The position numbers and the translations under genes are program-made. Positions 1,755 to 32,000 of a DNA stretch of 32,000 nucleotides are shown here, piece after piece. Location of the stretch: the NCBI GenBank assembly GCA_025349965.1, contig CP075337.1, positions 540,001 to 572,000 on the forward strand, in the 5' to 3' direction. The notes under the pieces were generated by a model, which saw nothing but the letters and a program-made list of their open reading frames with translations, made no database searches and was not told the origin of the DNA. This DNA is from Candidatus Saccharimonadota bacterium (GTDB taxonomy: Bacteria > Patescibacteriota > Saccharimonadia > Saccharimonadales > Saccharimonadaceae). Numbering within the stretch: the stretch's first letter is position 1; every line of letters starts with the position of its first letter.

Positions 1755-4520
1755 ATGGGTAAGTATAAAGAACTTGTAGCCGAATATAAACAGAAGGCGA
1801 AACGAAAGTACGAGGCGCTAAAGGTGGCGCGTCGCAAGCGCAGGGAACTCCCCCTCAAAGAGCAGTTTACGCTTCTAAAAGAAGACCGGTCTAAGCGTCT
1901 TGCATGGAAACGTCGCATCAAGAAAGTACAAGATCCGCGCGAGCAGTATGCTCAAAAGAAGGGCTATAAGCAGTACCGTAAACTCCAGAATCGGAAGTTT
2001 AAATGGGGTATTGCTATTGGCGTCGTCGTAATTATCGGGCTCCTCTTCACTCACTGGCTCATCACCGCCACCAAGCCACTTACAAGCGACCAGATGGCAG
2101 CAAGGAAGCAATCACTTAACGTCGCTCGCCAAGTGATGGATGAGGGGACGGTGCTTCTGAAGAATGAAAACAACACGCTTCCGCTAAAAGATACAGCGGT
2201 GAATGTTTTTGGCGCTGGGTCAGCGGCGCCAATCTATAGTGGCGGTGGAGCGGGTGGCATCAGCAGTGCAAGCGCACAAAGTCTCTACGCAGCCTTTGAG
2301 GAGGAGGGAATTAACTACAACCCGACTCTTTACAACCTTTATAACAATTTCGCACACAAAAACAAAGTTTCAACCGATGAATTTAAGGAGCAAGGAAAAA
2401 CACTTCTCGACATCTTACTTCCTAACATCGCTGGATTTCTCGTAAAGTCACCGAAGGAAATGCCTGCAAGTTCAGTGAATGGCGATATCCTCAGCGAAGC
2501 AAAGCGTCATTCAGACACAGCCCTCTATGTCGTGTCACGCGCCGGGACCGAGACAGTAGACTTTAAGCCCGAAGAACTTACGCTCACGCAAGATGAGCGT
2601 GATACTGTTGCGCTGCTTGATAAGAACTTCGAACATATTATTATTCTTGTGAATACTACCAATGTTATGGAGCTTGGCTTCGTAAACGAATTCAAGCACA
2701 TTGATAGCGTTCTATGGATAGGTGGCCCTGGAGAGGTTGGAGCTCGGTCTATTGCCGCCACGCTTAAGGGAGAAGTAACGCCATCCGGCAAACTTACCGA
2801 CACCTACATGTACGACATCGCCGCAAATCCTGCCGTGAAAAATACTGGCAACTTCCAGTATCAGCGTAACCCAGAAGACGAATGTGGCACGTGTAAAGAA
2901 CGCTCTCAAAAACGGTACTTCGTTAACTATCAAGAAAACGTCTACGTTGGCTACCGCTACTACGAAACATTTGAAAAAACCGAGGCAGTACAATACCCAT
3001 TTGGCTACGGCCTTTCATACACTAACTTTGCATGGACTGTTGGCAAAAAGACAGCCACTAATGACATCGTTAGCGCCGACGTAACCGTTACTAACAACGG
3101 GCCGGTAGCGGGTAAGGATGTCGTCCAGCTCTACTTTAGCGCGCCATTCACGCACGACGGTGTCGAACGTCCATCTGTTGAACTCGGTGGATACAAGAAA
3201 ACCAAACTCCTTCAGCCGGGTGAATCTGAGACAGTAACGATACAGATGAAGACGAGAGATATGGCCGCGTTTGATGATAAAATTGCAAAAACATGGGTCA
3301 TGGAAGCTGGAACCTACGGGTTGAGCATTCGCCGCGATGTGCGCACACCGGTAGAACTCTTTACCTATGAGCAGCCAGCCCGAGCAACATTCAGCGTCGA
3401 TTCAGTCACCGGCCAGGCCGTAAAGAACCAATTTGATCATGCGCGCGGAAGTGGCATAAACTATCTAAGCCGCTCATACCCTGAAACAACCAAAGTAACC
3501 GCACCGAGCAACTTCACCATTCCAAGCTTTATCTTTGCATCTGACTACAGTCACGAAAAGAGCACCGCTCCCGTACCAACTACTAACGCGAAGAACGACC
3601 TCAAACTTGCAGACCTCAAGGGTATCAACTATGACGACCCTAAGTGGCAAAATTTCATTGAGCAACTTAACAAAGACGAGCTTGTTCGCCTTGCTGGCCA
3701 TGGGGGCTACTGGTCCGTGGCAATTGACCGCCTCGGCGTCCCACGCACCAGTATGTACGACGGCCCAACTAGCATCCGCAACTTCCTTGGCAGCTGGGCA
3801 AGCGTTGCCTATCCAATTCCTGCAAATCTTTCTGCAAGCTGGAACGATGAGCTGGCTGAAAAAGTAGGCGAGGCAATGGGTAAGGAAGCGCAGAGCTTCA
3901 ACGTGAATGCAACCTATGCGCCATCACTCAATATGCACCGCTCGCCACTTGGTGGACGTAACTTTGAGTACTACTCAGAGGACCCGCTAATTGCTGGAAA
4001 GATTGGCGCAGCCGTGACACGTGGCCTCCAAAGCACTGATACAGTGGCGATTATTAAACACTTCGTCGCCAATGATCAAGAAACGAACCGCGCCGCTTAC
4101 GGACTCTACACCTGGACTACCGAACAAGCACTCCGTGAAATCTACCTCAAACCATTTGAGATCGCCGTCAAGGAAGGGCAGCCAAATGGTGTCATGTCGG
4201 CCTTTAACCGCATCGGGACAACATGGGCTGGCGGAGACAAGGCACTTCTTAATACCGTACTCCGTGATGAGTGGGGCTTTAGAGGCTTCGTCATCACCGA
4301 CGCCGGACTTGCCGGCCAAGGCGACCACTTTGATGCACTTCAAGCTGTAGAATCGGGCAACGACATGATGCTCGCCTCACCGATAGACGCCGGAGAAAAT
4401 ACTTTCGAGAAGCAACTCAAGACGTACCTCAAGAAGGATGAAGTGGGCACACTGATTGCACTTCAAAACGCTGCGCATAACATCCTCTACTATGTACTCC
4501 AGACAGGGGTCATAAAGTAG
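1755..4520 (+). CDS. Membrane-anchored glycoside hydrolase family 3 (beta-glucosidase-like) with reversed, circularly permuted domain order
   Basis: Sandwich-domain and Fn3-like motifs come first: VLLKNENNTLPL, YVGYRYYE, YPFGYGLSYTNF, VTVTNNGPVAGKDVVQLYF. Barrel-domain motifs come last: LNMHRSPLGGRNFEYYSEDP, KHFVANDQE, WGFRGFVITD. The N-terminus has a roughly 83-aa Lys/Arg-rich tail and then a TM helix (WGIAIGVVVIIGLLFTHWLI). GAGGG lies 6 nt upstream of the ATG. Confidence 0.88.
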   Translation: MGKYKELVAEYKQKAKRKYEALKVARRKRRELPLKEQFTLLKEDRSKRLAWKRRIKKVQDPREQYAQKKGYKQYRKLQNRKFKWGIAIGVVVIIGLLFTHWLITATKPLTSDQMAARKQSLNVARQVMDEGTVLLKNENNTLPLKDTAVNVFGAGSAAPIYSGGGAGGISSASAQSLYAAFEEEGINYNPTLYNLYNNFAHKNKVSTDEFKEQGKTLLDILLPNIAGFLVKSPKEMPASSVNGDILSEAKRHSDTALYVVSRAGTETVDFKPEELTLTQDERDTVALLDKNFEHIIILVNTTNVMELGFVNEFKHIDSVLWIGGPGEVGARSIAATLKGEVTPSGKLTDTYMYDIAANPAVKNTGNFQYQRNPEDECGTCKERSQKRYFVNYQENVYVGYRYYETFEKTEAVQYPFGYGLSYTNFAWTVGKKTATNDIVSADVTVTNNGPVAGKDVVQLYFSAPFTHDGVERPSVELGGYKKTKLLQPGESETVTIQMKTRDMAAFDDKIAKTWVMEAGTYGLSIRRDVRTPVELFTYEQPARATFSVDSVTGQAVKNQFDHARGSGINYLSRSYPETTKVTAPSNFTIPSFIFASDYSHEKSTAPVPTTNAKNDLKLADLKGINYDDPKWQNFIEQLNKDELVRLAGHGGYWSVAIDRLGVPRTSMYDGPTSIRNFLGSWASVAYPIPANLSASWNDELAEKVGEAMGKEAQSFNVNATYAPSLNMHRSPLGGRNFEYYSEDPLIAGKIGAAVTRGLQSTDTVAIIKHFVANDQETNRAAYGLYTWTTEQALREIYLKPFEIAVKEGQPNGVMSAFNRIGTTWAGGDKALLNTVLRDEWGFRGFVITDAGLAGQGDHFDALQAVESGNDMMLASPIDAGENTFEKQLKTYLKKDEVGTLIALQNAAHNILYYVLQTGVIK

Positions 4521-4526
4521 GATTTT

Positions 4527-4955
4527 ATGGCTGGTGAAAATAAAACCAGACAAACAGAAAAGAATGTTCTTGAGTTTCTTGATGAGTGGGTTGAGGGCGA
4601 GCAGAAACGCCAAGATAGTCTCGTGCTTATGGATATAATGGAGCGCGTCACTGGACACGCGCCAAAAATGTGGGGTCCAAGCATTATTGGCTTTGGAAGC
4701 TACCATTACATCTCGCCCGGCGGCAGAGAGGGAGACTGGCCAGCGATTGCATTTTCACCACGAAAAGCGGCCCTTACGCTCTATATCGTGACCGATACCG
4801 AACGGTACGCTGATGAAATAGCAGCACTCGGCAAATGCAAGACAAGCAAGGCGTGTATTTACGTGAAGAAGTTGGCAGATATCGATACAGATCAACTCGC
4901 CAAACTCATTGAAAAATCTTATAAAGATTTACAGGAAATGTTTGTGGTAAAGTAG
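4527..4955 (+). CDS. DUF1801 / YdhG-like domain protein
   Basis: 142-aa ORF starting 6 nt after the GH3 stop. The segment MWGPSIIGFGSYHYISPGGREGDWPAIAFSPRKAALTLYI matches my recollection of the DUF1801 core. Confidence 0.6.
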   Translation: MAGENKTRQTEKNVLEFLDEWVEGEQKRQDSLVLMDIMERVTGHAPKMWGPSIIGFGSYHYISPGGREGDWPAIAFSPRKAALTLYIVTDTERYADEIAALGKCKTSKACIYVKKLADIDTDQLAKLIEKSYKDLQEMFVVK

Positions 4956-5045
4956 CGCAGCAAAAGAGCTTGGTTGGCCTTTACTGCTTATGCATGGTAC
5001 CATGAGAGGAGTTATAAAAGCCCCAACCCCAAAAAGGAGACGGAC

Positions 5046-5642
5046 ATGCACACCACAAAAATAACTCTTACCAAGAAGGCCTTGCTTACAGCAATGGCGC
5101 TTATCACAACAGCAACACTGCTTGTTGTCGGAATGCTCGCAATGACCACAAACGCGGCGTCACAACACGCAGGCGTTTCCTCAAACGCCGCTGCTGTTCC
5201 AGGCGGCGCAGACTTCATTCTTACCGTCAAGCACGCAGATAGCGCAGTTGAGGAGCTCGAGGTAGACCACTCCCTTGAGGCAACACTACCGGAATTTAGC
5301 GTTTACGCAGACGAAGCTGATCCATACGGTGGCGACCAAGCAGTCTTTGCATCGGAAGGCGTTAGCGTTACCTATAGCGCTACTGCAAAAGAGTGGGTAA
5401 TCAACTTCGGTTCAGCTATCACAAATAGTATTAAGAACGAACCGGCAGGTATTACATTCTACCTTACCTTCAAGACAAGCACCGGCACAGTACTCTGGGG
5501 TGGCACAAGCCCAACCACACCGGAAAGCACCTTCAAGTTTAACCTTACGGCGGGTACCGGTGACTCTGTTCAGCTAGACGTACAGGAAGAAGATACCTCA
5601 GCGGTTATTCCGGGCGTTCCAAACACCAGTACTGTTAACTAG
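5046..5642 (+). CDS. Secreted or membrane-anchored protein of unknown function (Thr/Ser/Ala-rich)
   Basis: I prefer ATG 5046 over the TTG at 4974. AAGGAG lies 7 nt upstream and TATAAA sits at 5013-5018. N-terminal signal or anchor: KKALLTAMALITTATLLVVGMLAMTTNAASQ. The protein ends ...IPGVPNTSTVN. Confidence 0.6.
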   Translation: MHTTKITLTKKALLTAMALITTATLLVVGMLAMTTNAASQHAGVSSNAAAVPGGADFILTVKHADSAVEELEVDHSLEATLPEFSVYADEADPYGGDQAVFASEGVSVTYSATAKEWVINFGSAITNSIKNEPAGITFYLTFKTSTGTVLWGGTSPTTPESTFKFNLTAGTGDSVQLDVQEEDTSAVIPGVPNTSTVN

Positions 5643-5659
5643 TACACTCGAGAGATCCA

Positions 5660-6298
5660 GTGAAGATCACGCGACGCAAGCATCAGCGAAAAGCCATCTG
5701 GTTTAAAGCTGGTGCTTGTTTCATTACAGCAATACTTACCATTGGAGCAGTCTACTTTTACACCTCACAGAACAGTAACGCACCACAATCAACCCCAAAG
5801 GTAGCCCAGACTGCGTCAAAGGAGTCTACCCCGAAGTTCGCCGAACTATCCGAAACACCCGCACGTCTGAAAATAGGAAAAATTAACGTTGACGCACCCA
5901 TCATTCCGGTAGGCCTCACTAAAGACGGTGATATGGATGCGCCAAATAACGTCACTGACGTTGGCTGGTACAACAAGAGCGCCAAGGCAGGTGAAGGAAA
6001 ATATTCAGTTCTCCTCGACGGACACCGCGGTGTCAATGAACGAGCGGTCTTTGAGCGATTAAACGAAGTTGCTGTCGGTGACACCATTAGCCTCATAACT
6101 TCACAGGGGACGATACTTTCATATATTGTGCGCGAGACCGAAACAAGGCCGTATCAAGAGGTTGATATGAAGAAAGCGCTACTACCATACAAGAAAGGCG
6201 CACAGAGTATGACGATTATTACCTGCGAGGGAACTTATAGTAATACAAAGAAGACATATGACAACCGGACGGTTGTGTATGCGGAGCGGGTGAAATAG
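5660..6298 (+). CDS. Sortase-family transpeptidase (GTG start)
   Basis: N-terminal TM anchor. The catalytic triad appears in sortase order: His (LLDGHRG), Cys (MTIITCEG), Arg (DNRTVVYAERV). Confidence 0.82.
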   Translation: MKITRRKHQRKAIWFKAGACFITAILTIGAVYFYTSQNSNAPQSTPKVAQTASKESTPKFAELSETPARLKIGKINVDAPIIPVGLTKDGDMDAPNNVTDVGWYNKSAKAGEGKYSVLLDGHRGVNERAVFERLNEVAVGDTISLITSQGTILSYIVRETETRPYQEVDMKKALLPYKKGAQSMTIITCEGTYSNTKKTYDNRTVVYAERVK

Positions 6299-6313
6299 AG
6301 GTACAATAAAAGC

Positions 6314-8677
6314 ATGGACACTACCGACGCACCCCTCAAACATCAAGCCCTCATCAACCAAATGACACTTGAGGAGAAGGCGTCGTTACTCTCTGGGGCG
6401 AATTTCTGGAACACTAAGGCAATTGAACGGCTTGATGTTCCTTCTATTATGTTGACGGACGGTCCTCACGGCCTCCGCAAGCAAGGCGGCAAGAGTGATC
6501 ACCTTGGACTCAATGCCAGCATTCCAGCCACCTGCTTTCCCACCGCCGCGACGCTCGCGTCAAGTTGGGATGCGTCATTACTTGAAAGGGTAGGGGCGGC
6601 TATTGGCGAAGAGGCTAAGGCGGAGGATGTCAGCGTTGTACTTGGGCCGGGTTTGAACTTAGTGCGAAACCCCTTGGGCGGGCGAACGTTTGAGTATTTC
6701 TCCGAAGACCCGTACGTCAGCGGAAAACTTGCCGCTGGCTTGACCAGAGGGATTCAAAGTACTGGCGTGGCCGCGTCACCGAAACATTTTGCCGTAAATA
6801 GCCAAGAGCATTTGCGCATGACTATGAATGAAGTCGTAGATGAGCGAACATTGCATGAGCTCTATCTTGAAGGATTTCGCCGCGTGGTTGAGGAGGCGCA
6901 TCCACGCGTGATTATGTCGTCGTACAATCAAGTAAACGGCGTATTTGCAAATGAGAGCAGGGAACTGCTTGATGCTATTCTGGTTAAAAAATGGGGTTTT
7001 GACGGCGTTGTTGTGACCGACTGGGGCGGAGAACATGATCGTGTTGCCGGGCTGACTGCTGGAAATCATTTGGAAATGCCTTCAAGCGGCGGGATTACGG
7101 ACGCCGAAGTTGTCGCGGCAGTAAAAGAGGGTGACGTTGCACCGTTTCTACTAGATGCGCGTGTGAACGATTTGCTGGAGCTTGCTTTTAGTACTCACGA
7201 GGCGCTCCAAGAAGGCGCGAAGGACCCACGCCATGCCGAACATCACAAACTCGCTATTCAGGCCGCCGAGCGATCTATGGTACTGCTTCGTAATGAGGGT
7301 AGGACATTACCACTAAAGCGAAACCAAACCGTAGCCGTGATTGGTGATTTTGCGCGCACGCCACGGTATCAGGGAGCGGGGAGTTCTTTGATTAACCCGA
7401 CCCAGATTGATAACGCCTATGATGCGCTCATTGATGCCGGCGTATCAGTCGCAGGCTACGCGAAGGGCTTCCACCGCTTCGGTCGCAAGAGCCGTCGCTT
7501 GCAGCGAGAAGCAGTCGCGCTGGCGCAGTCCGCCGATGTCGCGCTAATTTTCTTAGGGCTCGATGAATCAAGCGAGGCCGAAGGTCTGGACCGAGAACAC
7601 ATACGCTTGCCTCAGAATCAACTTGAGCTTATTGCGGCGCTTTTTGAAGCCGGCGTGCGACCAGTCGTTGTTTTGGCGGGTGGCGGACCGGTTGAGTTAC
7701 CATTTGCTGATAGCACTGCTGCGATTCTTCACGGCCAACTCGGCGGACAGGGCGGGGGCACAGCCGTGACACGAATTCTCACCGGAGCGGTAAATCCAAG
7801 CGGCAAGCTCGCCGTTTCTTACCCCTTACTATATAGCGACGTACCATCAGCCAACTACTTCCCAGGGCAAGAAGTAACCGCCGAACATCGCGAAGGACTC
7901 TATGTTGGCTACCGCTATTATGACACCGCCGATGTCGCCGTACGCTATCCGTTCGGGCATGGACTTTCTTATACTTCTTTTGAATACAGCGACGTGCAGG
8001 CTTCGCAGCACGAGGCATCTATAACCATCACAAATACTGGTGACAGGGCGGGCGAGGAAACGGTACAAGTATATGTGCGCCCACTTGACGCGCCGACCTT
8101 CCGGCCGAAGCAAGAGCTAAAGGCGTTTACGAAGGTTGTTTTGGAGGTGGGCGAGTCGAAGACCATTGTTATTGAATTTGATGCGCGAACATTTGCGTAC
8201 TATGATATTGAGCAGCACGACTGGGTGGTAGCAAGCGGAGCGTATGAGGTAGCCATTGGCGCATCGAGTAGGGACATTCGAGAAGTGCGCACCGTAAGCA
8301 TTGAGGGCGTTTCAGTAAGCAAGTCCGCCGTGAACCCGATACTTGAGCCGTATTACACAGGAGCCGTTCAGAACGTCTCGGATGAAGCATTTACAGCACT
8401 GGTCGGGCGAGCATTGCCAGCGGCGCGATGGGACCGCTCACAGCCGCTGACTGAGCTTGATACGATACGGCAGTTACAGTACTCGAATTGGATAGGGCGA
8501 AACTGTTACGGATTCTTGATGCTGGCGCGGAAGTTTTTGTTGAAGCTGGGGCGACCTTTGCAAGCGAATAATCTTCTTTTTGTCATTGATATGCCTTTTT
8601 ATAAGTTAGAGCGGTTTAGTGCAGGGAAGACGAGTTTGAAGAGGGTGCGGCGGTTTTTGGGGTGGGTGAATAGATAA
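6314..8677 (+). CDS. Glycoside hydrolase family 3 beta-glucosidase with canonical domain order and no signal peptide
   Basis: Motifs in order: LTDGPHGLRK, LVRNPLGGRTFEYFSEDP, KHFAVNSQE, GVVVTDWG, VLLRNEGRTLPL, YVGYRYYD, YPFGHGLSYTSF, ITITNTGDRAGEETVQVYV. TACAAT (6302-6307) lies exactly 6 nt upstream of the ATG. Confidence 0.92.
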   Translation: MDTTDAPLKHQALINQMTLEEKASLLSGANFWNTKAIERLDVPSIMLTDGPHGLRKQGGKSDHLGLNASIPATCFPTAATLASSWDASLLERVGAAIGEEAKAEDVSVVLGPGLNLVRNPLGGRTFEYFSEDPYVSGKLAAGLTRGIQSTGVAASPKHFAVNSQEHLRMTMNEVVDERTLHELYLEGFRRVVEEAHPRVIMSSYNQVNGVFANESRELLDAILVKKWGFDGVVVTDWGGEHDRVAGLTAGNHLEMPSSGGITDAEVVAAVKEGDVAPFLLDARVNDLLELAFSTHEALQEGAKDPRHAEHHKLAIQAAERSMVLLRNEGRTLPLKRNQTVAVIGDFARTPRYQGAGSSLINPTQIDNAYDALIDAGVSVAGYAKGFHRFGRKSRRLQREAVALAQSADVALIFLGLDESSEAEGLDREHIRLPQNQLELIAALFEAGVRPVVVLAGGGPVELPFADSTAAILHGQLGGQGGGTAVTRILTGAVNPSGKLAVSYPLLYSDVPSANYFPGQEVTAEHREGLYVGYRYYDTADVAVRYPFGHGLSYTSFEYSDVQASQHEASITITNTGDRAGEETVQVYVRPLDAPTFRPKQELKAFTKVVLEVGESKTIVIEFDARTFAYYDIEQHDWVVASGAYEVAIGASSRDIREVRTVSIEGVSVSKSAVNPILEPYYTGAVQNVSDEAFTALVGRALPAARWDRSQPLTELDTIRQLQYSNWIGRNCYGFLMLARKFLLKLGRPLQANNLLFVIDMPFYKLERFSAGKTSLKRVRRFLGWVNR

Positions 8678-8719
8678 CACCAACGTGCTATACTACCAGA
8701 AATAAGAGGAGACAGCTTT

Positions 8720-9418
8720 ATGGCTACCGAGCATCAGATTGGTCAACTTGAAAAAGGGTTACGGGAATATAGAAAGAAATACCTAACCAAGAAGCAAAAC
8801 CTCGAGGTTGATGAATCGGCAACGCGAATCATGGTAAACAATTTCCTCACCTCCGTACTCGGCTATCTTGAGCTTGATGACATTAAAACCGAGTACAACA
8901 TACGCGGTGAATATGCGGATTACGTCATTCAACTTGCACGAAAAAAGCATATTGTTATCGAAGTAAAATCAATTCAAATTGACCTCAACGACCGCCACCT
9001 ACGCCAAAGCCTTAGCTATGCAGCAAACGAAGGAATAGACTGGATCCTTCTTTTTAACGGTAAACAGATTAAGCTCTATCGTGTTTTGTTTGGAAAACCG
9101 ATATCGTATCATGCTGTATTTGAGTATGATATCTCAGACCTTTCAACCATCAAGCAGGCTGCAGGTGACATTATCAATCTTGCGAAAAAGTCAGTCGCAA
9201 AAGGCGAGCTTGACCTTTATTGGAAGCGATTTGACGCACTAACACCGGCAAGTCTCACGAAAGCAATCTATACCGAAGATGTTATTCGCTCAATTCGTCT
9301 ACGACTCAAGAAGAATTGTGGCATCAATTTTGATCAGCAAGATATAGCAGTAGCGGTGCAGGAACTACTTGTCAATGGGCATAGTGGGGCGGTTAAGCCG
9401 AAAAGTCTTAAGAAGTAA
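8720..9418 (+). CDS. Stand-alone PD-(D/E)XK nuclease-like protein resembling the type I restriction enzyme HsdR N-terminal domain
   Basis: The segment EYADYVIQLARKKHIVIEVKS gives a D...ExK arrangement, followed by LRQSLSYAANEGIDWILLFNG. Upstream are TGCTATACT at 8686-8694 and an AGGAG SD 8 nt from the ATG. Confidence 0.55.
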   Translation: MATEHQIGQLEKGLREYRKKYLTKKQNLEVDESATRIMVNNFLTSVLGYLELDDIKTEYNIRGEYADYVIQLARKKHIVIEVKSIQIDLNDRHLRQSLSYAANEGIDWILLFNGKQIKLYRVLFGKPISYHAVFEYDISDLSTIKQAAGDIINLAKKSVAKGELDLYWKRFDALTPASLTKAIYTEDVIRSIRLRLKKNCGINFDQQDIAVAVQELLVNGHSGAVKPKSLKK

Positions 9419-9419
9419 A

Positions 9420-9671
9420 CTACTTGCCAATCTCGCGCTCAACCACAATAGTACACTCTGTCACAAGAGCAGCAATAGCTCCGACCGCAGCAAGCATTGG
9501 CGCAAGTACCGCACCAACAACACCAATAGTTAATGGTAGCTCGATAAGTTTTTTATCTTCTTTATTCTTGATAATAATGCGGCGAATATTACCCTCGTTA
9601 ATCAAACTCTTCACTTTATCGAGGAGATCTTTACCGTTTACTTTGAATTCTTCGCGGGTGGTTTTGGTCAT
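9420..9671 (-). CDS. DUF4342-like small protein
   Basis: The segment GKDLLDKVKSLINEGNIRRIIIKNKEDKKLIELPLTIGVVGAVLAPMLAAVGAIAALVTECTIVVER matches my recollection of DUF4342. I chose the start at 9671 because TATAAT (minus strand, 9678-9683) lies exactly 6 nt upstream of that ATG. Confidence 0.68.
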   Translation of the reverse strand: MTKTTREEFKVNGKDLLDKVKSLINEGNIRRIIIKNKEDKKLIELPLTIGVVGAVLAPMLAAVGAIAALVTECTIVVEREIGK

Positions 9672-9737
9672 AAACTCATTATAAAACAAGCGTGCTACCT
9701 TATTTACACAAGAAACCAACCGTATTAAGATTAATCA

Positions 9738-10355
9738 ATGAAGCTAAAAAAAGATCTACTTGATACCGCACTAGGCTTCTGGCTTAGTGTTACCGTCATT
9801 TACGTCACGTTGATTGCCTACGCCTCATCTACTAGTTTTAAAGCAGGGTATCTTAGTTACTTTCATATTGACATCAAGCATGTAGACTATACACCTTCGA
9901 TTGCTGATCTCATGAACCAACCCGTCACAATAATACTTGCCATCATACTCCTCCTTATCATCTACTTTGCAATAATATTAATAATAAATTTCCTTCACTG
10001 GCTTTTGAGTAAAATTGCAAATAAAAAAGGATGGGTTCAATTCCTTGACCTTATTGGTGAAAAACCCTTTGGGCGCAGACTCATAATTGCGAGTCTGATT
10101 GCACTCCTTTTAATCCTATCCTTTAAACTTCCTCTTCTTGACTCTTTCAGCAGTGGAACAAAGTTTGCAGAACAACAAAAAAACTTCACGACGCTCGTTG
10201 TGGATGATCAAAAAAAGACCATCAAGGTTCTCATTCATCAACATGAAGGCATCGGGCTTTTTAAGACCTACAATACAGACTCTAAGACATTCAATAGTTC
10301 ATACGAAGCGATAGACCTGACTAATACTGAATTAAATTATGTGCAAATTCAGTAA
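9738..10355 (+). CDS. Integral membrane protein of unknown function, encoded in AT-rich sequence
   Basis: 205-aa ORF with at least three hydrophobic helices: FWLSVTVIYVTLIAYA, VTIILAIILLLIIYFAIILIINFL, LIIASLIALLLILSF. No recognisable motif. Confidence 0.55.
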   Translation: MKLKKDLLDTALGFWLSVTVIYVTLIAYASSTSFKAGYLSYFHIDIKHVDYTPSIADLMNQPVTIILAIILLLIIYFAIILIINFLHWLLSKIANKKGWVQFLDLIGEKPFGRRLIIASLIALLLILSFKLPLLDSFSSGTKFAEQQKNFTTLVVDDQKKTIKVLIHQHEGIGLFKTYNTDSKTFNSSYEAIDLTNTELNYVQIQ

Positions 10356-10381
10356 GTAGAATATTACCTAATAAAATTGCT

Positions 10382-10415
10382 TACGTTTTCGTATATTTTC
10401 GTATATAATACAAAT
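10382..10415 (+). promoter_or_regulatory. Putative leaderless promoter and operator of the LexA-methyltransferase gene
   Basis: Perfect tandem repeat TTTTCGTATA x2 (10386-10395 and 10396-10405). Palindrome TACG-N4-CGTA at 10382-10393. TATAAT at 10404-10409 lies 6 nt upstream of ATG 10416. Confidence 0.5.
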
Positions 10416-11969
10416 ATGAGCAAGGGTACTACAAAGGGTAGAATTGTCGACTTCATAGCAGACTATATACTCCAGAACGGGAGAAGTCCTACGCTAATGG
10501 AGATAAAGAGTGGCGTTGGGCTAAAGTCAGTCTCAACAATCCACCAACACGTACAGGACCTATTACGATCAGGCGTGCTACGACACGATGAACAGAATGG
10601 ATATCAACTAGCAAGCAAGGAAGTTTCCATCACAACAGTCCCCATACTAGGAACGATTACAGCAGGAAAGCCGATCGAGGTAATAGAGCTTCCAGAAGAC
10701 ACCATCGAGGTCGCAGGATTGCCAAAAAATGCCAGATTTTATGCCCTCAAAGTCCTCGGAGATAGCATGATAGAAGAGGGTATATTCGACGGAGATACGG
10801 TCGTAATAAAAGAGCAGACATCGGCTCAAAACGGACAAACTGTCGTTGCTATTATAGATGAAAATAAGGTAACGCTCAAAAAAATCTACAAAGAGGGAGA
10901 TCGATTCAAGCTCCAGCCAGCCAACCAAAGCCTCCTGCCACTCTACAGGGACGAGGTAGAGGTGCGTGGCATCGTATGGTCGGTTCATAGAAACTTTAAA
11001 ACTAAGGCAGAGGGTGTAATGATGAATACAAAGGAATGGAAAACGGTAGACTTATTCGCAGGCGTAGGAGGTGTACGTCTCGGTTTCGAGGAGGCAGGAT
11101 TTACTACAGTTTTCGCGAACGACTTTGAACCTAAGTGTAAATTCACCTATGATTCCAACTTTAATAATGCAAAACTTATCGTTGAAGATATTACTAAGAT
11201 TCAAACAAGTGATATTCCTGATACGGACTTTGTTCTCGGAGGTTTTCCATGTCAGGCATTTTCGATAGCGGGCTACCGGCAAGGCTTCAAGGACGATAAA
11301 GGTCGTGGAAATCTATTTTTCGATGTTGCTCGTATTATTGAGGATAAGCAACCCACAGGATTTCTACTGGAGAATGTAAAGAACCTCAAGACTCACGACG
11401 GGGGAAATACCTACAAAGTCATTGAAAAAACACTCCAAGATCTTGGCTACCACGTTAAGTCAAAGGTACTTAACTCAATGGAATACGGTAACGTTCCTCA
11501 AAATCGTGAGCGTATTTACATTGTTGGATTCAAGGATCAGAGCAAAGCTGAAATGTTTGAATTCCCAGAGCCAACCCCTCTTACAAAGAAGATCACTGAC
11601 ATACTTGAAGATGAAGTTGATGAAAAGTATTACTATAATGGCAAGCCATTATTTGAACTACTCAAGGATGAAGTGAATGAGGTAGGGCAGGTGTACCAGT
11701 GGCGACGTAAATACGTTCGTAAGAATAAGAAGGGTGTGTCGCCGACCCTCACGGCAAACATGGGGATGGGCGGACATAACGTACCCATCATCTATGACGG
11801 TAAGGGTATACGAAAACTCACTCCAAGAGAGTGCTTCCGCATTCAAGGATTCCCGGATGACTATAAATTACCCGACATTGCTGATTCAGCACTATACAAG
11901 CAAGCAGGAAATTCGGTAAGCGTACCGGTACTTAAGCGTATCGCAGAGGAAATAGTGAAGGTCCTTTAG
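10416..11969 (+). CDS. LexA-like autocleavable repressor (winged HTH plus S24 peptidase) fused in frame to a DNA (cytosine-5) methyltransferase
   Basis: LexA part: the HTH is SPTLMEIKSGVGLKSVSTIHQHVQDLLRSGVL. The Ala-Gly cleavage context is VPILGTITAGKPIE. The Ser nucleophile lies in LGDSM and the Lys in VTLKK. There is no stop codon before the C5-MTase motifs: I DLFAGVGG, IV GGFPCQAFS, VI LLENV, VIII QNRERIYIVG, PTLTA, RKLTPRECFRIQGFP, X AGNSVSVPV. Confidence 0.88.
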   Translation: MSKGTTKGRIVDFIADYILQNGRSPTLMEIKSGVGLKSVSTIHQHVQDLLRSGVLRHDEQNGYQLASKEVSITTVPILGTITAGKPIEVIELPEDTIEVAGLPKNARFYALKVLGDSMIEEGIFDGDTVVIKEQTSAQNGQTVVAIIDENKVTLKKIYKEGDRFKLQPANQSLLPLYRDEVEVRGIVWSVHRNFKTKAEGVMMNTKEWKTVDLFAGVGGVRLGFEEAGFTTVFANDFEPKCKFTYDSNFNNAKLIVEDITKIQTSDIPDTDFVLGGFPCQAFSIAGYRQGFKDDKGRGNLFFDVARIIEDKQPTGFLLENVKNLKTHDGGNTYKVIEKTLQDLGYHVKSKVLNSMEYGNVPQNRERIYIVGFKDQSKAEMFEFPEPTPLTKKITDILEDEVDEKYYYNGKPLFELLKDEVNEVGQVYQWRRKYVRKNKKGVSPTLTANMGMGGHNVPIIYDGKGIRKLTPRECFRIQGFPDDYKLPDIADSALYKQAGNSVSVPVLKRIAEEIVKVL

Positions 11970-13114
11970 GACGCTTCACTTATAAACTCTTCGTAAGAGC
12001 CTACTTGCTTAACATCAATATAGTACTTGCCGTCAATCTTTGAGATCTCTACGGAGTCAATACCGGAGTCTACACCTTTTGCCTCGAGCATCTCATAAGT
12101 TACCAGAGTACCCTCCTTGATATTTAGAACATCTCTAAGTATCCATTTTCCGAGATCTGCATTGTGCTGGCTCATAAGTGCCTTCCCGTCATCTTGACTA
12201 ACCTTCACACTCATAACTCTTCCGTCAGGGAAATGTAGATCAAAGGGCGTGTTTCTGTCTGGCAAGAAGTCTCCATACAACTCGCGTACTTTCTTTGGAA
12301 TAAGGATATATGCCTCATTAGGGTCGCGCTTGCGACCTCTCGCGTTCCACTGATTTAGACCACTCCGCTCAAACACAACTCTTTCATCGTTCTTATAGCT
12401 ATATAGGGGCAAGATGATGTGCTCACGACCTTCATCAAGAGATTCGATGTTAGTATCATTATTATAGATAGTAGCTGATTCATCCAGCTTCATCGAATCA
12501 AGAAGGCCGAATGGATCCTCAAGAATAGCAACAGGCTTCCTGAAAAGTCCATCCTCGCTGAAGAACTCTTTAAATAGCGTGCTCTTCGATGTATTAAATC
12601 TATACCTTGCAATACCATCAGTAAAGGTGATTGTTGTTCCAGACCGGTCTGTAATCTCAATCTCATCGATATCGATACGGGGCATCGCATCTTCAAACAC
12701 AAACAGCTGGCCCGGTAGGCGAGCGATACAATGATAAATATACTCATCCACCCCAGCAATACTACCGGCAAAATCTATACGCTTATTACGAAGCTCGGAC
12801 ACCTTCTTAACCTTGTCTAAGTCGGGTAGTGTGTTATATAGAGCACTTTCTTTATTAAATTCGGCCACTTTTTCAAATTTAGGTCTGCCACTATAAACAA
12901 AGGTTTTGATACCCACACCAACATTACCGAGCGCGGCATCAATAGTAATATCGGAGCGTGCCAGGTTTTTAGCTTCAAAAATTCGGGAATACAGATACTC
13001 GGTGGTTCGATAGTGCAAGTAAGGAGTCTCGCTCTCAGAAAATAAGTTAGATAACGAGGCAACTTTTGCGAGTGAACTAGCGTATGTCTCGACTTTTTCA
13101 TGGTTATATTGCAT
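11966..13114 (-). CDS. Putative type II restriction endonuclease, partner of the C5 methyltransferase
   Basis: Convergent with the MTase, with overlapping stop codons. The N-terminal half has a nuclease-like segment, SDITIDAALGNVGVGIKTF. The C-terminal half is WNARGRKRDPNEAYILIPKKV...FDLHFPDGRVMSVKVSQDDGKALMSQHNADLGKWI. It is reminiscent of the B3-like DNA-binding modules of NgoFVII/BfiI/EcoRII-type enzymes, but that is recollection only. I chose the start at 13114 because TGCTATACT lies exactly 6 nt upstream. Confidence 0.55.
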   Translation of the reverse strand: MQYNHEKVETYASSLAKVASLSNLFSESETPYLHYRTTEYLYSRIFEAKNLARSDITIDAALGNVGVGIKTFVYSGRPKFEKVAEFNKESALYNTLPDLDKVKKVSELRNKRIDFAGSIAGVDEYIYHCIARLPGQLFVFEDAMPRIDIDEIEITDRSGTTITFTDGIARYRFNTSKSTLFKEFFSEDGLFRKPVAILEDPFGLLDSMKLDESATIYNNDTNIESLDEGREHIILPLYSYKNDERVVFERSGLNQWNARGRKRDPNEAYILIPKKVRELYGDFLPDRNTPFDLHFPDGRVMSVKVSQDDGKALMSQHNADLGKWILRDVLNIKEGTLVTYEMLEAKGVDSGIDSVEISKIDGKYYIDVKQVGSYEEFISEAS

Positions 13115-13167
13115 AAAATTAGTATAGCACCGATCGTCATGGTAGCAAAAAGGAGTACTATATAAAT

Positions 13168-13827
13168 ATGACCCTCTCCCTCCACCCCGAAACCCTCCAC
13201 CACCCAGCCGCCGCAACCGTCCTTCAATACGCCCAAGAATTCGAACCGAAAGTCCGCGAGCTCCTTCCAGAACTCACTGATCCGCTCGAGTTATACGTCA
13301 CAGATGATTTCATGATCCCTGAGGTGGGTGTCGGCGGCTTCTCATGGAGCGATACGATCATGAGCCTCAGTTTTGACATGGACTTCCCAGCCAAAGCTGC
13401 ACAAAAGCAGCAACTCTTCGGAACACTCCTTCACGAAGGCTTTCATATCATCCAAGGCCACCACGGTGGCGATACATCAAAACAGTCCGAACATCGCCAC
13501 ATCCTCGATAATGCCATCTACGAAGGCGCTGCTACAATTTTCGAGCAAAAATACGCCGGCGTCCATGCACCATGGGGTGATTACTCCGCACTATCCACTG
13601 AAGAGCTTGAATCTATCAAAGTACAGCTTGAAAATGTCACTAATAAACAATATCGCACGGTAGAAGGGTTGTGGGAGAAGTACGCCTTCTATGACCCGGA
13701 TGATACTATACGATGGAAAGTATATCGAACCGGCGCTTGGCTCGTCGAGAAATACCTTGCAAAGACAGGAGACGATATACGCAACCTGAGAACTAAATCA
13801 GCACGAGAAATTTTAGAGGTACTATAA
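13168..13827 (+). CDS. Putative zinc metallopeptidase-like protein (HExxH; DUF2268-like)
   Basis: HExxH motif in TLLHEGFHIIQGHHGG. 219-aa ORF with ordinary composition. AAGGAG lies 12 nt upstream of the ATG. Confidence 0.45.
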   Translation: MTLSLHPETLHHPAAATVLQYAQEFEPKVRELLPELTDPLELYVTDDFMIPEVGVGGFSWSDTIMSLSFDMDFPAKAAQKQQLFGTLLHEGFHIIQGHHGGDTSKQSEHRHILDNAIYEGAATIFEQKYAGVHAPWGDYSALSTEELESIKVQLENVTNKQYRTVEGLWEKYAFYDPDDTIRWKVYRTGAWLVEKYLAKTGDDIRNLRTKSAREILEVL

Positions 13828-19518: not shown

Positions 19519-20331
19519 CTTTGCCACCCGCTCATTTTGCACTGTTTCATAGGTGATATTTTTTTAGAACATAAATAGAACGTCTATTATAGGCGGCGAT
19601 TTAACTGTAAAACTATATGCGCCCCTTAGCGACCCCTGTTGCACCTCTGTTAAATGCTGTACGAGCCAGAAAAACACAAAAAAACCATATATATGTACAT
19701 GTGTAAATGGAAAACGCGCTCAATATAGCAGAACGTAGAACAATAAAATAATAGCAGGGGATGAGTGAATTATAAAAAATAATTTCACAAAAAGGGAACA
19801 AAGAATATTAAGTAGGCACAAACCATGATCATATCATAGCTATAGACTTAACGTCGCACAATAATTCTTTTACGTTACTTTAATATGCGTGATAAGAGGT
19901 ATATAGACTCATCTCTATAGAGCGCTAAAATACACATCTATATATAAATAGGGCGAGAGTACTCTTTCACACTAAGTAACTCTATGTTTATTTATTAAAA
20001 CTTTGTTATTTATATAGTAACGTAGACCCTACAGTAAACTCGCAACATTAAATACTCATTTAGAGCGTGGAACAATGACTCTCATAAGTTTTCCACAAAC
20101 CCATAGCCCATATGGCAATATTTGCTTTTTTCCGAAAATATTACACTACTCCCTCCCACTACTCTATTTTTTGACTTTTTGCTTTTTTGGTATTTTAATA
20201 TAGTTTTTTTGTATTTTATCAGAAAACAATATAGAACAAAAATAGAACATTCGTTATGAAATAAGGGGAGTAGAGTGTATGACCTTTCATACAATACAAG
20301 GACGGTCCGTCAGCCAGGCTCATCCAAATCA
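19519..20331. other. AT-rich block of about 810 bp between two convergent gene ends, apparently non-coding
   Basis: Only two short, compositionally odd ORFs (62 and 70 aa) lie inside it. It is visibly much more AT-rich than its flanks. Near-identical 17-mers lie close to each end: TAGAACATAAATAGAAC (19565-19581) and TAGAACAAAAATAGAAC (20232-20248). Confidence 0.6.
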
Positions 20332-21270
20332 CTATTTGTATGCTGCTCGGCCTGCAACTCGAACATCAATATACTGTGGTGTATTTCCATGTGCTGCAAA
20401 ATATTTCAATGCGCGATCCATGTCTTCAACCTGCACCCCCACTCCTCTATCTGTACTGAAGCGGATGCGAGTCTCCCCTCCCTCAAGTTTTACATCAACA
20501 CGGCGTGTAGTATCGGCTGGCAAAATAGCTTCGGAAACGGTATATCCCCTCCCCTTCGCTTGATCCACCACCTTGCCGAGAAATCCTAAAAGTTTTGAAC
20601 TCGCCACTGCACTTCCCTGCTCGGGCGCAATACCACTCTCATCAACAACTCTTACCCCTGGTGTCGCAAAATAATTTTTACTAAATACAACACCATCTCG
20701 GTCAACGTAATACTGGTCGCCTCTTATTTGCCAGCTCGCAACCGGCTTCCGGAAAGAAATAGTAAAACGCACTTGCGAAGGGAGCGTTACACTGTTCGCA
20801 ATCTCTACAGAGGCAACCTCACCATGAGCTTCGGAAACATATTGCGTCAGCGTATCTTCGTTTAGCGTCGCCCTAAGGCGTTGGGACGGATTACGACCTA
20901 CATATTCAGCAATGGACTCTTCGTATGCATTCGCATCTACCGTCTGTGTAATTTCCGTATCACTAAAAGCAACTACAGGCTTCGCAATAAACTGCCAAAG
21001 GCCAATAAAAAGGAGTACTACAACACCTGCAGCGGTCAAGAAAACCAATCCAAGCTTGCGACGCTGCAGTACAAGATTGTGGGACTTTTGGCGCTCCGAC
21101 TCTCCTGCTTCGCTACGCTTGTAGCTACTTACCGTCTGATTGCGACGGTAGTGCGGATTTGGCGCAGCCACATCAGAAGCTTGGCCACGCCGACCATCTT
21201 CAATAGAATACTCGGGCAATCTTCGCCGAGGCACAAGTTGGTTTGTTTTTTTCTGATTTTTCTTAAACAT
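20332..21270 (-). CDS. ftsQ: Cell division protein FtsQ/DivIB-like
   Basis: It is the last gene of the dcw cluster. It has a basic N-terminus, a single TM helix (LGLVFLTAAGVVVLLFIGLW), and a POTRA/FtsQ-like extracytoplasmic part. Confidence 0.72.
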   Translation of the reverse strand: MFKKNQKKTNQLVPRRRLPEYSIEDGRRGQASDVAAPNPHYRRNQTVSSYKRSEAGESERQKSHNLVLQRRKLGLVFLTAAGVVVLLFIGLWQFIAKPVVAFSDTEITQTVDANAYEESIAEYVGRNPSQRLRATLNEDTLTQYVSEAHGEVASVEIANSVTLPSQVRFTISFRKPVASWQIRGDQYYVDRDGVVFSKNYFATPGVRVVDESGIAPEQGSAVASSKLLGFLGKVVDQAKGRGYTVSEAILPADTTRRVDVKLEGGETRIRFSTDRGVGVQVEDMDRALKYFAAHGNTPQYIDVRVAGRAAYK

Positions 21271-29933: not shown

Positions 29934-31475
29934 CTATTGTACAATATCTTCGCCAAAATGTTTCTGTAACCGCATCTTTATCGAGCCTTCATGCCGCCCT
30001 AGCCGGTCACTCAGCTCTTTTACGCTCTCGCCCTGTTGGAAGTACTGCTTCAAATCAGTATCATCAGAAGCCGCCCATGGACGATATGCGTTTGGATACG
30101 TTTCGCGCATCTTCGCAATCTTATCAGACCAGCTAGATCCACCCTCGGTTTTCTTCTTTGGGGTAAGTCCCTTTTTCGCATCTTCAGCACGCTTCTCAGC
30201 CAGCTCCATTAAATGCGCAAACTGCTCTCGAGCCTCGGCAACTCTCTGCTGCAAATGCGCATCAATCGCCTGCGCCTCATCGCTCACCTTCAGTGCCATT
30301 TGGTTAATCCCCGCCAAGTAAAGTGTCTCAAGACTGCGCACACGGCTCAACGCCACATACCCCATTCCCTCAACAAACGCCTTGCGCAAGTCAACCCGCG
30401 CCGCGTCAAGCGTCATTCCCTGAGATTTATGCACGGTAATTGCCCATGCCAAACGAAGTGGAATCTGTGTAATTGAAGCACGTTTTTTATCGCCATCACG
30501 AAGCTCCCATGTATCCGGCTGCATCGTCACCTCTTTGCCATTTCTAAACTGCACAATTGGGTACTCGGTTGCCGGGTCAAAATCTACCACCACACCGATA
30601 CTTCCATTGGCATATTTACGATCAATACTATTCTTCACCGCCATCACCAAAGCGCCTTCCTTAAGACGCAATACCTCAGGCGCCAAAACGGATCGTTGCA
30701 AATTCTCAACATAGTTCTGCGCACCAGTCGTCACTTGATGGTAGGATAATTCATCACCCTCAACCTCAGCCAAACGCCGCTCGTTAATCGTATCAACGTC
30801 GATATTTACTGTATGGAGTTCCGTCAACTGCGACGGGTCATCTGGCTCAACCTCCGCTCGCTCCAAGAGTTTCTCTGCATGATGGCGACGGATATCCCCC
30901 GCCCGCAGTGCATTCAAAATCTCAAGCAAATGCTCATCTTCCTGACGATACTGCTCTTCAAGGTAACAGATTGTTGGGTTGAGCTCATTCCAAACTCGTG
31001 ATGACACCACAAACTGCCCAGCCTGCACATTTGAGCCACGTGTTACCGGAGGAAGCTGGAAAAAGTCACCAGACATAATAATTTGAATGCCGCCAAACGG
31101 AGTGTCTGGCTGCTTTCGGACCACGCGACACACTTCATCCACCATATCTAAACGGTAGCCATGCAACATACTAATCTCATCAATAATCAGCACGTCGGTC
31201 TTCTCAATAATCTCTCGACGCCCCTTCGCCATATGTTCGGCAAAGTTGCCCGGCAAAAAGTCATGAATGCCAATCCCAGACCAGGCGTGAATGGTTGTGC
31301 CGCCAAGATGCGTTGCCGCAAGCCCCGTGGTTGCCGTTACGGAAACATGCTTGCCATCAGCCTTGGCATACTTAATAAACTGATTCAGTACATAGGTCTT
31401 CCCCGACCCCGCTGGACCAGTCAGCAGTACACTTTCCCCCGAAAGCATTATCTCTAACGCAAGCTTTTGATTCAT
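29934..31475 (-). CDS. Pif1/RecD-like superfamily 1 helicase with a C-terminal HTH-like tail
   Basis: Walker A GPAGSGKT, ATTGLAATHLGGTTIH, Walker B LIIDEISM, TVHKSQGMTLD, YVALSRV. The C-terminal tail includes ESVKELSDRLGRHEGSIKMRLQK. TATACT lies 8 nt upstream of the ATG. Confidence 0.82.
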   Translation of the reverse strand: MNQKLALEIMLSGESVLLTGPAGSGKTYVLNQFIKYAKADGKHVSVTATTGLAATHLGGTTIHAWSGIGIHDFLPGNFAEHMAKGRREIIEKTDVLIIDEISMLHGYRLDMVDEVCRVVRKQPDTPFGGIQIIMSGDFFQLPPVTRGSNVQAGQFVVSSRVWNELNPTICYLEEQYRQEDEHLLEILNALRAGDIRRHHAEKLLERAEVEPDDPSQLTELHTVNIDVDTINERRLAEVEGDELSYHQVTTGAQNYVENLQRSVLAPEVLRLKEGALVMAVKNSIDRKYANGSIGVVVDFDPATEYPIVQFRNGKEVTMQPDTWELRDGDKKRASITQIPLRLAWAITVHKSQGMTLDAARVDLRKAFVEGMGYVALSRVRSLETLYLAGINQMALKVSDEAQAIDAHLQQRVAEAREQFAHLMELAEKRAEDAKKGLTPKKKTEGGSSWSDKIAKMRETYPNAYRPWAASDDTDLKQYFQQGESVKELSDRLGRHEGSIKMRLQKHFGEDIVQ

Positions 31476-31508: not shown

Positions 31509-32000
31509 TTATCCGCGCGGCGGCTCGCCCTCTGGTTCATCAAGTGGCTTTTTGCTCTTGATTTCATAGCGTTTGCCAGTAATTTCACTCGTAATATAAT
31601 CTTCATTAATAAGATTCACAAACATATCGAGATCATTGCCGTCCATGATGATAATCGCACCCTCGTCATCCGTCATAAGGTCAAGCTGCATCGTGTCAGC
31701 GTATTCGATCGCCTGCTCTTGAGTGACACTGCCAATCTCAAGTTTTTGTAGCTTATTTACAATCTTCTTTTTCTCCATCACCAATGACTGCAGGTTCGCG
31801 CCCTCGGCAAAACTGAGCTTGTACTGTTTTTCAATTTCCGCCACCTTCTTATCCGCAAGAAGCTGCTTCTTATATTCATAGTTAAAAATACGCTCAAACT
31901 TACTTTGGCTAAAGATGAAGATGTCTTTATCAATAATCAACACTTGGTTATCTGCAGGCACCTTCCAACCAAATTCAGGCGTAAAAGCACGGAATGAACC
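31509..32000 (-). CDS. 3' part of a larger ORF that runs off the window; possibly DUF4868 (KwaB-like), low confidence
   Basis: The frame is open from 31961 to base 32000 (...GSFRAFTPEFGWKVPADNQ...), so the GTG in the ORF track is probably internal. The C-terminus FVNLINEDYITSEITGKRYEIKSKKPL and the preceding layout resemble my recollection of DUF4868 C-termini. Confidence 0.5.
   Translation of the reverse strand, partial: GSFRAFTPEFGWKVPADNQVLIIDKDIFIFSQSKFERIFNYEYKKQLLADKKVAEIEKQYKLSFAEGANLQSLVMEKKKIVNKLQKLEIGSVTQEQAIEYADTMQLDLMTDDEGAIIIMDGNDLDMFVNLINEDYITSEITGKRYEIKSKKPLDEPEGEPPRG

Follow-up and report, generated by a model that had tools for sequence, protein, structure and literature searches.

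A window of 32,000 nucleotides from the genome of a Candidatus Saccharimonadota bacterium (contig CP075337.1, positions 540,001 to 572,000) carries a gene in which a LexA repressor is joined in frame to a C5 cytosine DNA methyltransferase, tail to tail with a gene for a putative type II restriction endonuclease. It is one member of a large class that spans the Patescibacteria, in which at least six methylase families are joined to LexA. We propose, with a probability of about 0.55, that the window holds a type II restriction-modification (R-M) cassette acquired on a low-GC island, in which the LexA-fused methylase (M) represses its own gene, damage-induced cleavage relieves this repression, and the level of the endonuclease (R) may fall, which would amount to restriction alleviation gated by the SOS response. 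The original prediction, made from the letters of the DNA, had pointed out the fusion and its neighbour. Beyond it, we describe the Patescibacteria-wide class, the swapping of the R partner among relatives, and an operator type shared with stand-alone lexA genes of the candidate phyla radiation (CPR). No description of LexA-methylase fusions or of SOS control of type II systems was found in the searchable literature, whose reach did not include REBASE or a 2017 paper on the SOS response in Patescibacteria.

Domains of the fusion protein

The fusion gene consists of the following parts.

10416..11969, plus strand: LexA-S24-C5 methyltransferase fusion gene (ORF, Pfam, NCBIfam, PADLOC, AlphaFold2 model, homologues)
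10416..10664, plus strand: LexA winged helix-turn-helix (HTH) DNA-binding domain and hinge, residues 1-83 (Pfam LexA_DNA_bind, PF01726, at residues 9-59, E 1.5e-8; LexA alignment; AlphaFold2)
10665..10991, plus strand: S24 autoprotease and dimerisation domain, residues 84-192 (Pfam Peptidase_S24, PF00717, at residues 76-187, E 6e-23; alignment)
10992..11039, plus strand: flexible linker of about 16 residues, 193-208 (confidence score pLDDT below 50 at residues 196-204; variable in homologues)
11040..11966, plus strand: C5 cytosine DNA methyltransferase domain, residues 209-517 (Pfam DNA_methylase, PF00145, at residues 209-515, E 3e-93, model positions 2-324 of 324; M.HhaI match; PADLOC)

As had been claimed, a single uninterrupted open reading frame (ORF) extends on the plus strand from an ATG at 10416 to a TAG at 11969 and encodes 517 amino acids plus the stop. 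A profile check of both halves, which the original prediction had called for, assigned them to LexA/S24 and to the C5 methyltransferases. The LexA half scored 146 bits against the NCBIfam lexA equivalog model TIGR00498 (cut-off 111), over residues 9 to 194. In a residue-by-residue alignment with the LexA crystal structures of Escherichia coli and Thermotoga maritima, the A83-G84 pair of the fusion (10662-10667) falls on the scissile bond A84-G85 of E. coli LexA, S117 in GDSM (10764-10766) on S119, and K155 in TLKK (10878-10880) on K156, so that the catalytic Ser/Lys dyad is in register. The recognition helix reads SVSTIHQHVQDL. The HTH, Ala-Gly site, Ser and Lys listed in the original prediction are therefore all in place, and the LexA half is complete and apparently self-cleaving.

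The methylase half was equally well assigned. It matched the dcm model TIGR00675 with an E value of 1.6e-103 and the PADLOC model MTase_II with 5e-125, and its best match in the PDB was M.HhaI, over the whole length (residues 13-318, E 1e-61). The motifs FAGVGG, PCQ, ENV, QNRERIY and GNSV are all present, are invariant among 28 homologues, and supply motifs I (FxGxG), IV (PCQ), VI (ENV), VIII (QxRxR) and X (GN) of the C5 enzymes in that order. C5 enzymes have their target-recognition domain between motifs VIII and IX. The predicted catalytic residue is Cys279 within PCQ, encoded at 11250-11252. Every sequence-level hallmark of a LexA protein and of a C5 methylase was thus found in this one protein.

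The AlphaFold2 model of the fusion (mean pLDDT 79) contains three folded domains, with linkers of low confidence between them (residues 67-70 and 196-204). They are a winged HTH at residues 6-65 (helices 6-21, 27-34 and 39-52, wing 55-65), a beta-rich S24 domain at 72-191, and the methylase at 209-517. The short linker before the methylase varies in both sequence and length among close homologues (alignment A1). We considered an internal start that would give a free methylase, and rejected it: Met204 and Met205 of the linker are not conserved and are replaced by VIPTK in relatives, so there is no conserved internal start.

The residues needed for self-cleavage were compared in 28 close homologues (alignment A1) and in 51 distant fusions (alignment A2), whose LexA parts are only about 35-50% identical and which carry six methylase families. 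The S24 Ser and Lys and the Gly of the cleavage site are invariant in both sets. The Ala of the Ala-Gly site is conserved in the same alignments, but is one position off in one subclade. Cleavage at this site is predicted to leave a new C-terminus ending in ...ITA in the window fusion and in ...IAA in relatives.

Recurrence across Patescibacteria

Homologues of the whole fusion were collected as protein clusters at 90% identity, of which the best 120, at 64-100% identity, were listed. These clusters, at least 120 in number, all combine S24 with DNA_methylase, and nearly all have the LexA DNA-binding domain as well. Most come from assemblies of Saccharibacteria and other Patescibacteria, and they were drawn from NCBI, JGI, ENA and Logan. 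The exact window protein is present in NCBI under the name 'transcriptional repressor LexA'; database annotation of such fusions names either 'LexA' or 'cytosine methyltransferase'.

When the LexA part alone was searched against 1.84 billion representative proteins, its nearest relatives were mostly long proteins. All 51 relatives that were scanned carry LexA_DNA_bind and Peptidase_S24, and their methylase partners are N6_N4_Mtase (27), Eco57I-type (7), D12 Dam-type (5), N6_Mtase (5), MmeI-type (4) and C5 (3). The named members among these distant LexA-methylase fusions are Patescibacteria. With the LexA part as seed, a scan of metagenomes recovered 76 complete fusions, against only two or three stand-alone LexAs of 199 amino acids. 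A search for S24-methylase fusions had been recommended in the original prediction, together with one for their conservation next to the same endonuclease family; many such fusions were brought up, and the R partner is swapped among relatives, as described below.

Besides these clusters, the same in-frame architecture is found at 13 genome loci and in 76 ORFs of independent metagenome contigs, and the linker is free of stop codons in all of them. This recurrence in independent assemblies rules out chance as well as an assembly join or frameshift that would have merged separate lexA and methylase genes. We found nothing in favour of such an artefact, apart from the linker being short and poorly conserved, and with at least 120 clusters against it we consider its chance negligible.

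In a nearest-neighbour analysis of the LexA domain, the fusions are interleaved with stand-alone CPR LexAs, so that several events of fusion or fission are more likely than a single ancient one. CPR commonly have stand-alone LexAs; the search for these returned CPR lineages with no named Saccharibacteria among them, and the look-ups of the nearest stand-alone LexAs gave almost no taxon names. A phage origin was also considered and rejected, as the IMG/VR contigs gave only two stand-alone 199-residue LexAs of this clade and no fusion.

Some further observations concern relatives of the fusion gene. The closest LexA-free methylase, 315 amino acids long and 74% identical, is on contig L009 from Candidatus Nanosyncoccus, so fused and unfused versions coexist in Saccharibacteria. 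In this locus (7992-9558) it stands beside a co-directional Bsp6I-type R gene in a region that may be prophage-like, and a TTTCTAATTATTTCTAG repeat occurs about 150 nucleotides (nt) upstream. A gene for a Vsr very-short-patch repair endonuclease lies divergently upstream of eight C5-type LexA-methylase genes (for example L083 7499-7912, L008 4953-5369, L017 1-402, L102 and L104), while the window island has no vsr.

Putative operator and partner endonuclease

Immediately upstream of the fusion gene, the sequence contains two elements of interest.

10386..10405, plus strand: putative LexA operator, a tandem direct repeat of TTTTCGTATA (two copies, TTTC-N6-TTTC), unique in the window and conserved in relatives
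10404..10409, plus strand: TATAAT −10 box of the fusion gene, a perfect match to the consensus by sequence

The repeats that the original prediction had placed at 10382-10415 are real and constitute a putative LexA-type direct-repeat operator joined to the −10 box, which the second copy of TTTTCGTATA overlaps. The 20-mer is unique in the window even when 3 mismatches are allowed, and it did not occur in any of 100 shuffles. A tandem TTC[GT]-N6/7-TTC[GT] is present in 82 of 90 distinct related upstream regions, usually joined to the −10 box, as compared with a mean of 2.8 and a maximum of 8 in shuffled sequences and with 5.2% of background windows. The consensus is cTTTC(G/T)(G/A)T-ttat-TTTC(G/T)(G/A)TATAAT. 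When 1.7 Mb of fetched DNA was scanned with a matrix made from these sites, there were 68 strong hits, of which 63 fell on these same promoters and one more on the promoter of a second LexA-methylase gene on contig L125. The same box is found at the stand-alone CPR lexA genes of L114 and L123, and cross-talk of the fusion with a host SOS network is possible on account of this shared operator type.

Operator and recognition helix vary together. All 38 operators with TTCGG or TTCGT pair with the helix ST(V/I)H(Q/E/K)H, and 33 of the 38 operators with TTCTA or TTCGA pair with STAH(Y/H/F)(Y/H) (Fisher 3e-16, a value that ignores phylogeny). Both classes occur in C5, N4/N6 and Dam-type fusions. By alignment, the variable helix positions correspond to A43 and E45 of E. 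coli LexA, the latter of which we take to be a base-contacting residue. Of the computational evidence for binding of these repeats by the fused LexA domain, this covariation is the strongest. An alternative operator, the palindrome TACG-N4-CGTA at 10382-10393, is restricted to the window and missing in relatives, and the direct repeat was preferred.

Direct repeats of this kind have a precedent in the GTTC-N7-GTTC LexA motif of Alphaproteobacteria (PMC8565304). The CPR boxes resemble it in that they include (G/T)TTC direct repeats that recur every 11 nt, such as GTTCGGTAAATGTTCGGT in L139. The window box differs in having a 10-nt period (TTTC-N6-TTTC) and a half-site extension CGTA, and in belonging to another host lineage.

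The ATG of the fusion gene lies 7 nt after the −10 box, a layout repeated in L081, L084, L086 and L088, and the mRNA is probably leaderless or nearly so for that reason. At both the M gene (10404-10418) and the R gene (13112-13126), the −10 box sits only about 7 nt before the start and there is no Shine-Dalgarno sequence, which suggests that both transcripts are leaderless.

Two side observations belong to these promoters. Of 90 CPR lexA or lexA-methylase genes, 43 have a perfect 9-mer DnaA box (TGTGGATAA or TTATCCACA) in the 120 nt before them (L001, L006-L008, L017, L092, L094, L097, L101-L106, L113, L124, L134, L149-L159 and others), against 17 of 5031 background windows (0.34%). As a rule the box stops 11-16 nt short of the first LexA repeat, directly upstream of the −35 region, and its presence suggests co-regulation of these genes by DnaA. 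The window's own fusion promoter has no DnaA box, and the sole perfect box in the window is at 28787. The other observation is of two LexA-methylase cassettes lying side by side at 3953-8564 of the metagenome contig L125. The first comprises a 621-residue N4/N6 fusion and a convergent MvaI/BcnI-type R gene, preceded by a gene for a 73-residue Xre-type, C-protein-like HTH protein, and the second has a 508-residue fusion. Their operators belong to different classes (TTTCTAT and TTTCGGT), as do their helices (STAHHH and STVHEH).

The neighbour of the fusion gene and the surrounding features are as follows.

11966..13114, minus strand: convergent type II restriction endonuclease gene, 382 amino acids (Pfam, PADLOC, AlphaFold2, homologue length)
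13121..13148, minus strand: promoter-like site of the R gene, TTGCTA, 16 nt, TG-n-TATACT (promoter scan, sequence)
8600..13150, no strand: low-GC island with the R-M pair and three small genes (composition profile, Pfam)

The convergent gene had been called a putative endonuclease, and family assignments agree with this. The NCBI record, from Candidatus Saccharibacteria bacterium TM7i, names it 'NgoFVII family restriction endonuclease', and the PADLOC model REase_II matched it over its full length with an E value of 4e-89. Its start is the ATG at 13114 and not the TTG at 13216, in agreement with the length of homologues and with the NCBI record. The C-terminal domain matched Pfam RE_NgoFVII_C (E 5e-14), and in the AlphaFold2 model (pLDDT 91) it superposes on the R.NgoAVII B3-DNA complex with a TM score of 0.68 and a root mean square deviation of 2.3 Å. 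The N-terminal 215 or so residues had no confident structural match; the weak hits were to PD-(D/E)XK enzymes, and none was to the PLD domain of NgoAVII.

The M and R stop codons of the window overlap by 4 bp. An ORF abuts the 3' end of the fusion gene at all 13 genome loci, where it is of NgoFVII type, of Bsp6I type, or from one of two unannotated families. Among the 72 fusion loci with enough downstream sequence, 69 have an abutting ORF, which is convergent in 62, and the stops overlap or lie at most 6 bp apart in 61 of these 62 pairs (median, a 4-bp overlap). The partner in metagenome loci is MvaI/BcnI-type in 21 (E 1e-48), together with a 621-residue N4/N6 fusion; others are a BsaWI-type enzyme, PD-(D/E)XK proteins, or a second Dam-type methylase. 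The partner family is therefore swapped among relatives, between NgoFVII-, Bsp6I- and PDDEXK_5-type enzymes and several unannotated families. About 35 loci, spread over Firmicutes, Bacteroidota, Campylobacterota, spirochaetes and other groups, place a homologue of the window R beside a LexA-free member of its methylase family. The pairing of this M with this R is therefore old and general. From the partner endonuclease families, the window system probably recognises GC(N/S)GC, as we take the targets of Bsp6I, NgoFVII and NgoAVII to be GCNGC, GCSGC and GCCGC, respectively.

A repeat search and a scan with a position weight matrix found no LexA-type box at the R promoter, nor anywhere else in the cassette. 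The island that holds the cassette has a GC content of 0.36-0.45, against about 0.50-0.56 in the flanks. Its three small genes encode an HSDR_N_2-like protein, a DUF4342 protein and a membrane protein. The first of them (8720-9418, 232 amino acids) has an HsdR N-terminal-like (HSDR_N_2)/PD-(D/E)XK signature and no PADLOC hit. The flanks are chromosomal, with a GH3 gene, sortase, an ABC transporter and the dcw cluster, and the flanking genes differ in each Saccharibacteria contig whose called genes were inspected.

Elsewhere in the window, Rfam and tRNA scans returned nothing. The minus strand has two weaker box-like direct repeats (GTTCTATTTTTGTTCTAT, 20231-20247, and GTTCTATTTATGTTCTAA, 19564-19580) in an ORF-free, AT-rich region of about 800 bp (19520-20330) between ftsQ (20332-21270, minus strand) and a gene for a 165-residue protein; they could be host SOS boxes, parts of an unannotated RNA, or chance. 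On the minus strand, a gene for a Pif1/RecD-like helicase (29934-31475) stands beside a C-terminal fragment of a KwaB-like protein of the Kiwa defence system (31509-31961), and the two may mark a further defence locus, at the edge of the window. Among short sites, GATC (69 observed, 114 expected), GGCC (67 observed, 102 expected), CGCG and CCWGG are clearly under-represented in the window, a hint of restriction pressure, past or present, exerted by other systems.

Proposed circuit and rival explanations

The proposed circuit builds on the established autoregulation of LexA and on its RecA-stimulated Ser/Lys autoproteolysis. The methylase of the cassette would be produced solely in its LexA-fused form. 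The LexA module would dimerise through S24 and bind the two TTTTCGTATA copies over its own −10 box, and since the bound repeat overlaps that box, the methylase would repress its own gene. Upon DNA damage, the RecA filament on single-stranded DNA would stimulate self-cleavage by Ser117/Lys155 at Ala83-Gly84, which would detach the DNA-binding domain from the S24-methylase body. The monomeric HTH would then leave the operator, the promoter would be derepressed, and synthesis of the methylase would rise. As no terminator was found on the plus strand after M, and the two genes are packed tail to tail, M transcription should collide with R or be antisense to it; stronger M transcription would thus run into R, whose expression may drop. 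The net result would be SOS-gated restriction alleviation that guards unmethylated sites arising from repair or recombination, or that halts self-restriction. A cassette entering a naive cell would be expressed methylase first. Retuning of M against R by activated RecA had been put forward in the original prediction as an idea, and it now has behind it the invariant protease residues and the covariation of operator and helix, both of which are consistent with it.

Several observations weigh against this proposal. R transcripts may end inside M, at a weak hairpin of the minus strand (11833-11819) that resembles a terminator. ClpXP degrades the two fragments of cleaved LexA in E. coli, and a similar fate of the fragments could lower, not raise, the methylase. 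The −35 region of the fusion promoter is weak, and a consensus scan missed the promoter. The window shows no shortage of GCNGC, GCSGC or GCGC and therefore gives no independent sign of restriction pressure. Finally, the window contains no recA, no repair genes and no second lexA.

Three other accounts of the fusion deserve comparison. It is unlikely that the fusion is the organism's own, and possibly only, SOS master repressor, with LexA regulating recA, uvr and other genes genome-wide through TTTTCGTAT-type boxes and the methylase and R-M functions secondary, the fusion tying an essential regulator to a selfish R-M cassette or resulting from genome compaction. The score above the lexA equivalog cut-off and the NCBI name would fit such a role, as would the operator type common to the lexA genes of L114 and L123, the weaker repeats at 19564-19580 and 20231-20247, and the failure of any stand-alone Saccharibacteria LexA to surface in LexA searches whose results were largely without taxon names. 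However, the low-GC island and the differing flanks of the inspected relatives are those of a mobile cassette, the two fusions of L125 use different operator classes, and stand-alone LexAs are frequent in CPR. In addition, 63 of the 68 strong boxes are autoregulatory only, though the sampled flanks were not enriched for SOS genes. We find it quite unlikely that the LexA module is a plain dimeric autorepressor, a built-in equivalent of a C protein that times M before R when the cassette becomes established, stays uncleaved in vivo and is blind to damage. Autorepression alone accounts for the position of the operator, M.SsoII-type methylases offer an analogy, and some LexA-like repressors work without RecA, such as IrvR (PMC7101444). 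Nevertheless, unused proteolysis would not keep the Ala-Gly site, Ser and Lys across 51 diverged fusions with six methylase families, and a short HTH would be enough for simple autorepression.

Also quite unlikely, in our judgement, is damage-triggered suicide of the abortive-infection or addiction type, in which cleavage would expose degrons, the S24-methylase and HTH fragments would be degraded, methylase activity would fall during SOS, and stable R would kill the damaged or phage-infected cell. The cleavage machinery is indeed strictly conserved, and R has its own promoter, which lacks a LexA box, so that R would not be shut off directly. The predicted ...ITA and ...IAA ends also resemble the ...VAA end left by cleavage of E. 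coli LexA, which we take to be recognised by ClpX. But cleavage would derepress the M promoter as well, and fresh fusion protein would be made continuously; instability of the S24-methylase fragment is only supposed; and for organisms whose genomes are very small, death upon any DNA damage would come at a high price. We therefore retain SOS-gated alleviation as the preferred explanation. Its extension to the whole class is more tentative and, to our mind, falls somewhat short of even odds: a portable LexA would have been fused repeatedly and diversified into operator/helix groups, damage would raise M and lower R throughout this CPR class, and the systems would be wired into the host SOS network or replace it.

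The fusion may be compared with known controllers of R-M systems. In M.SsoII/M.Ecl18kI, M.EcoRII, M.MspI and M.ScrFIA, as proposed here, an N-terminal DNA-binding region carried by the methylase represses the methylase's own promoter, and the amount of M is thereby coupled to expression of the R-M genes. That region is a short segment of about 70-100 amino acids with no enzymatic activity or known signal, in contrast to the full LexA with autoprotease of the window. In SsoII-type systems, moreover, M and R are divergent and share one site, at which the bound methylase represses M and permits R, whereas the window genes are convergent and the R promoter, which has no box, is 2.7 kb from the operator. 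The resemblance is one of functional analogy, not of homology. The C-protein systems (PvuII, BamHI, AhdI, Esp1396I) are similar in that a dedicated dimeric HTH regulator, acting at an operator of its own, governs when M and R are expressed and in which ratio, and their specificity groups resemble the two operator/helix classes of the LexA fusions. C proteins, however, are small, free-standing Xre-type proteins whose activation or repression is directed mainly at C-R operons, and the window regulator is of the LexA/S24 type and fused to M; no separate Xre-type C gene was found between 9400 and 13300, a C-like HTH being seen only in the related locus L125. Among restriction enzymes, NgoFVII/NgoAVII share the B3-like DNA-binding domain with the window R, and relatives pair the same methylase with Bsp6I-family enzymes, but none of these systems has a LexA fusion, and the N-terminus of the window R is unmatched to the PLD domain of NgoAVII.

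With LexA of the SOS response, lambda CI, SetR of SXT and UmuD, the fusion shares the combination of winged HTH and S24 Ser/Lys protease, the Ala-Gly site and the autoregulatory box. Cleavable repressors serve mobile elements as sensors of DNA damage in the host. To our knowledge, none of LexA, lambda CI, SetR and UmuD is fused to an enzyme. The window fusion would differ from them in that S24 stays on the 310-residue methylase after the predicted cleavage, and in that it controls an R-M cassette and not a prophage, an integrative and conjugative element or repair genes. Restriction alleviation in type I systems relieves restriction for a time when damage, repair or recombination creates unmodified sites (PMC11109961, PMC4231737). 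It acts through proteolysis of HsdR on DNA (EcoKI, ClpXP), unlike the transcriptional derepression of M that is proposed for the window. We know of no SOS-linked alleviation in type II systems.

How R-M systems avoid killing their host when repair, recombination or imbalance leaves unmethylated sites is a long-standing question, to which a damage-linked answer is known to us only for type I systems, in the form of ClpXP-mediated alleviation. If the proposed circuit holds, type II systems would have a direct input from DNA damage, and the cassette would be the first type II restriction-alleviation circuit. A new kind of R-M controller would also take its place beside C proteins, HTH-methylases and antisense RNAs. 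The circuit has small components and makes a prediction that is directly testable in vitro. The covariation of operator and helix is in itself a natural data set on how the DNA specificity of LexA changes. CPR bacteria have tiny genomes and few CRISPR systems, and rely heavily on R-M. The recurrence of the LexA-methylase design in many of these ultra-small Patescibacteria suggests that their defence systems are tuned by DNA damage, and, given that it recurs with many methylase and nuclease families, the design may be a main regulatory principle of CPR defence.

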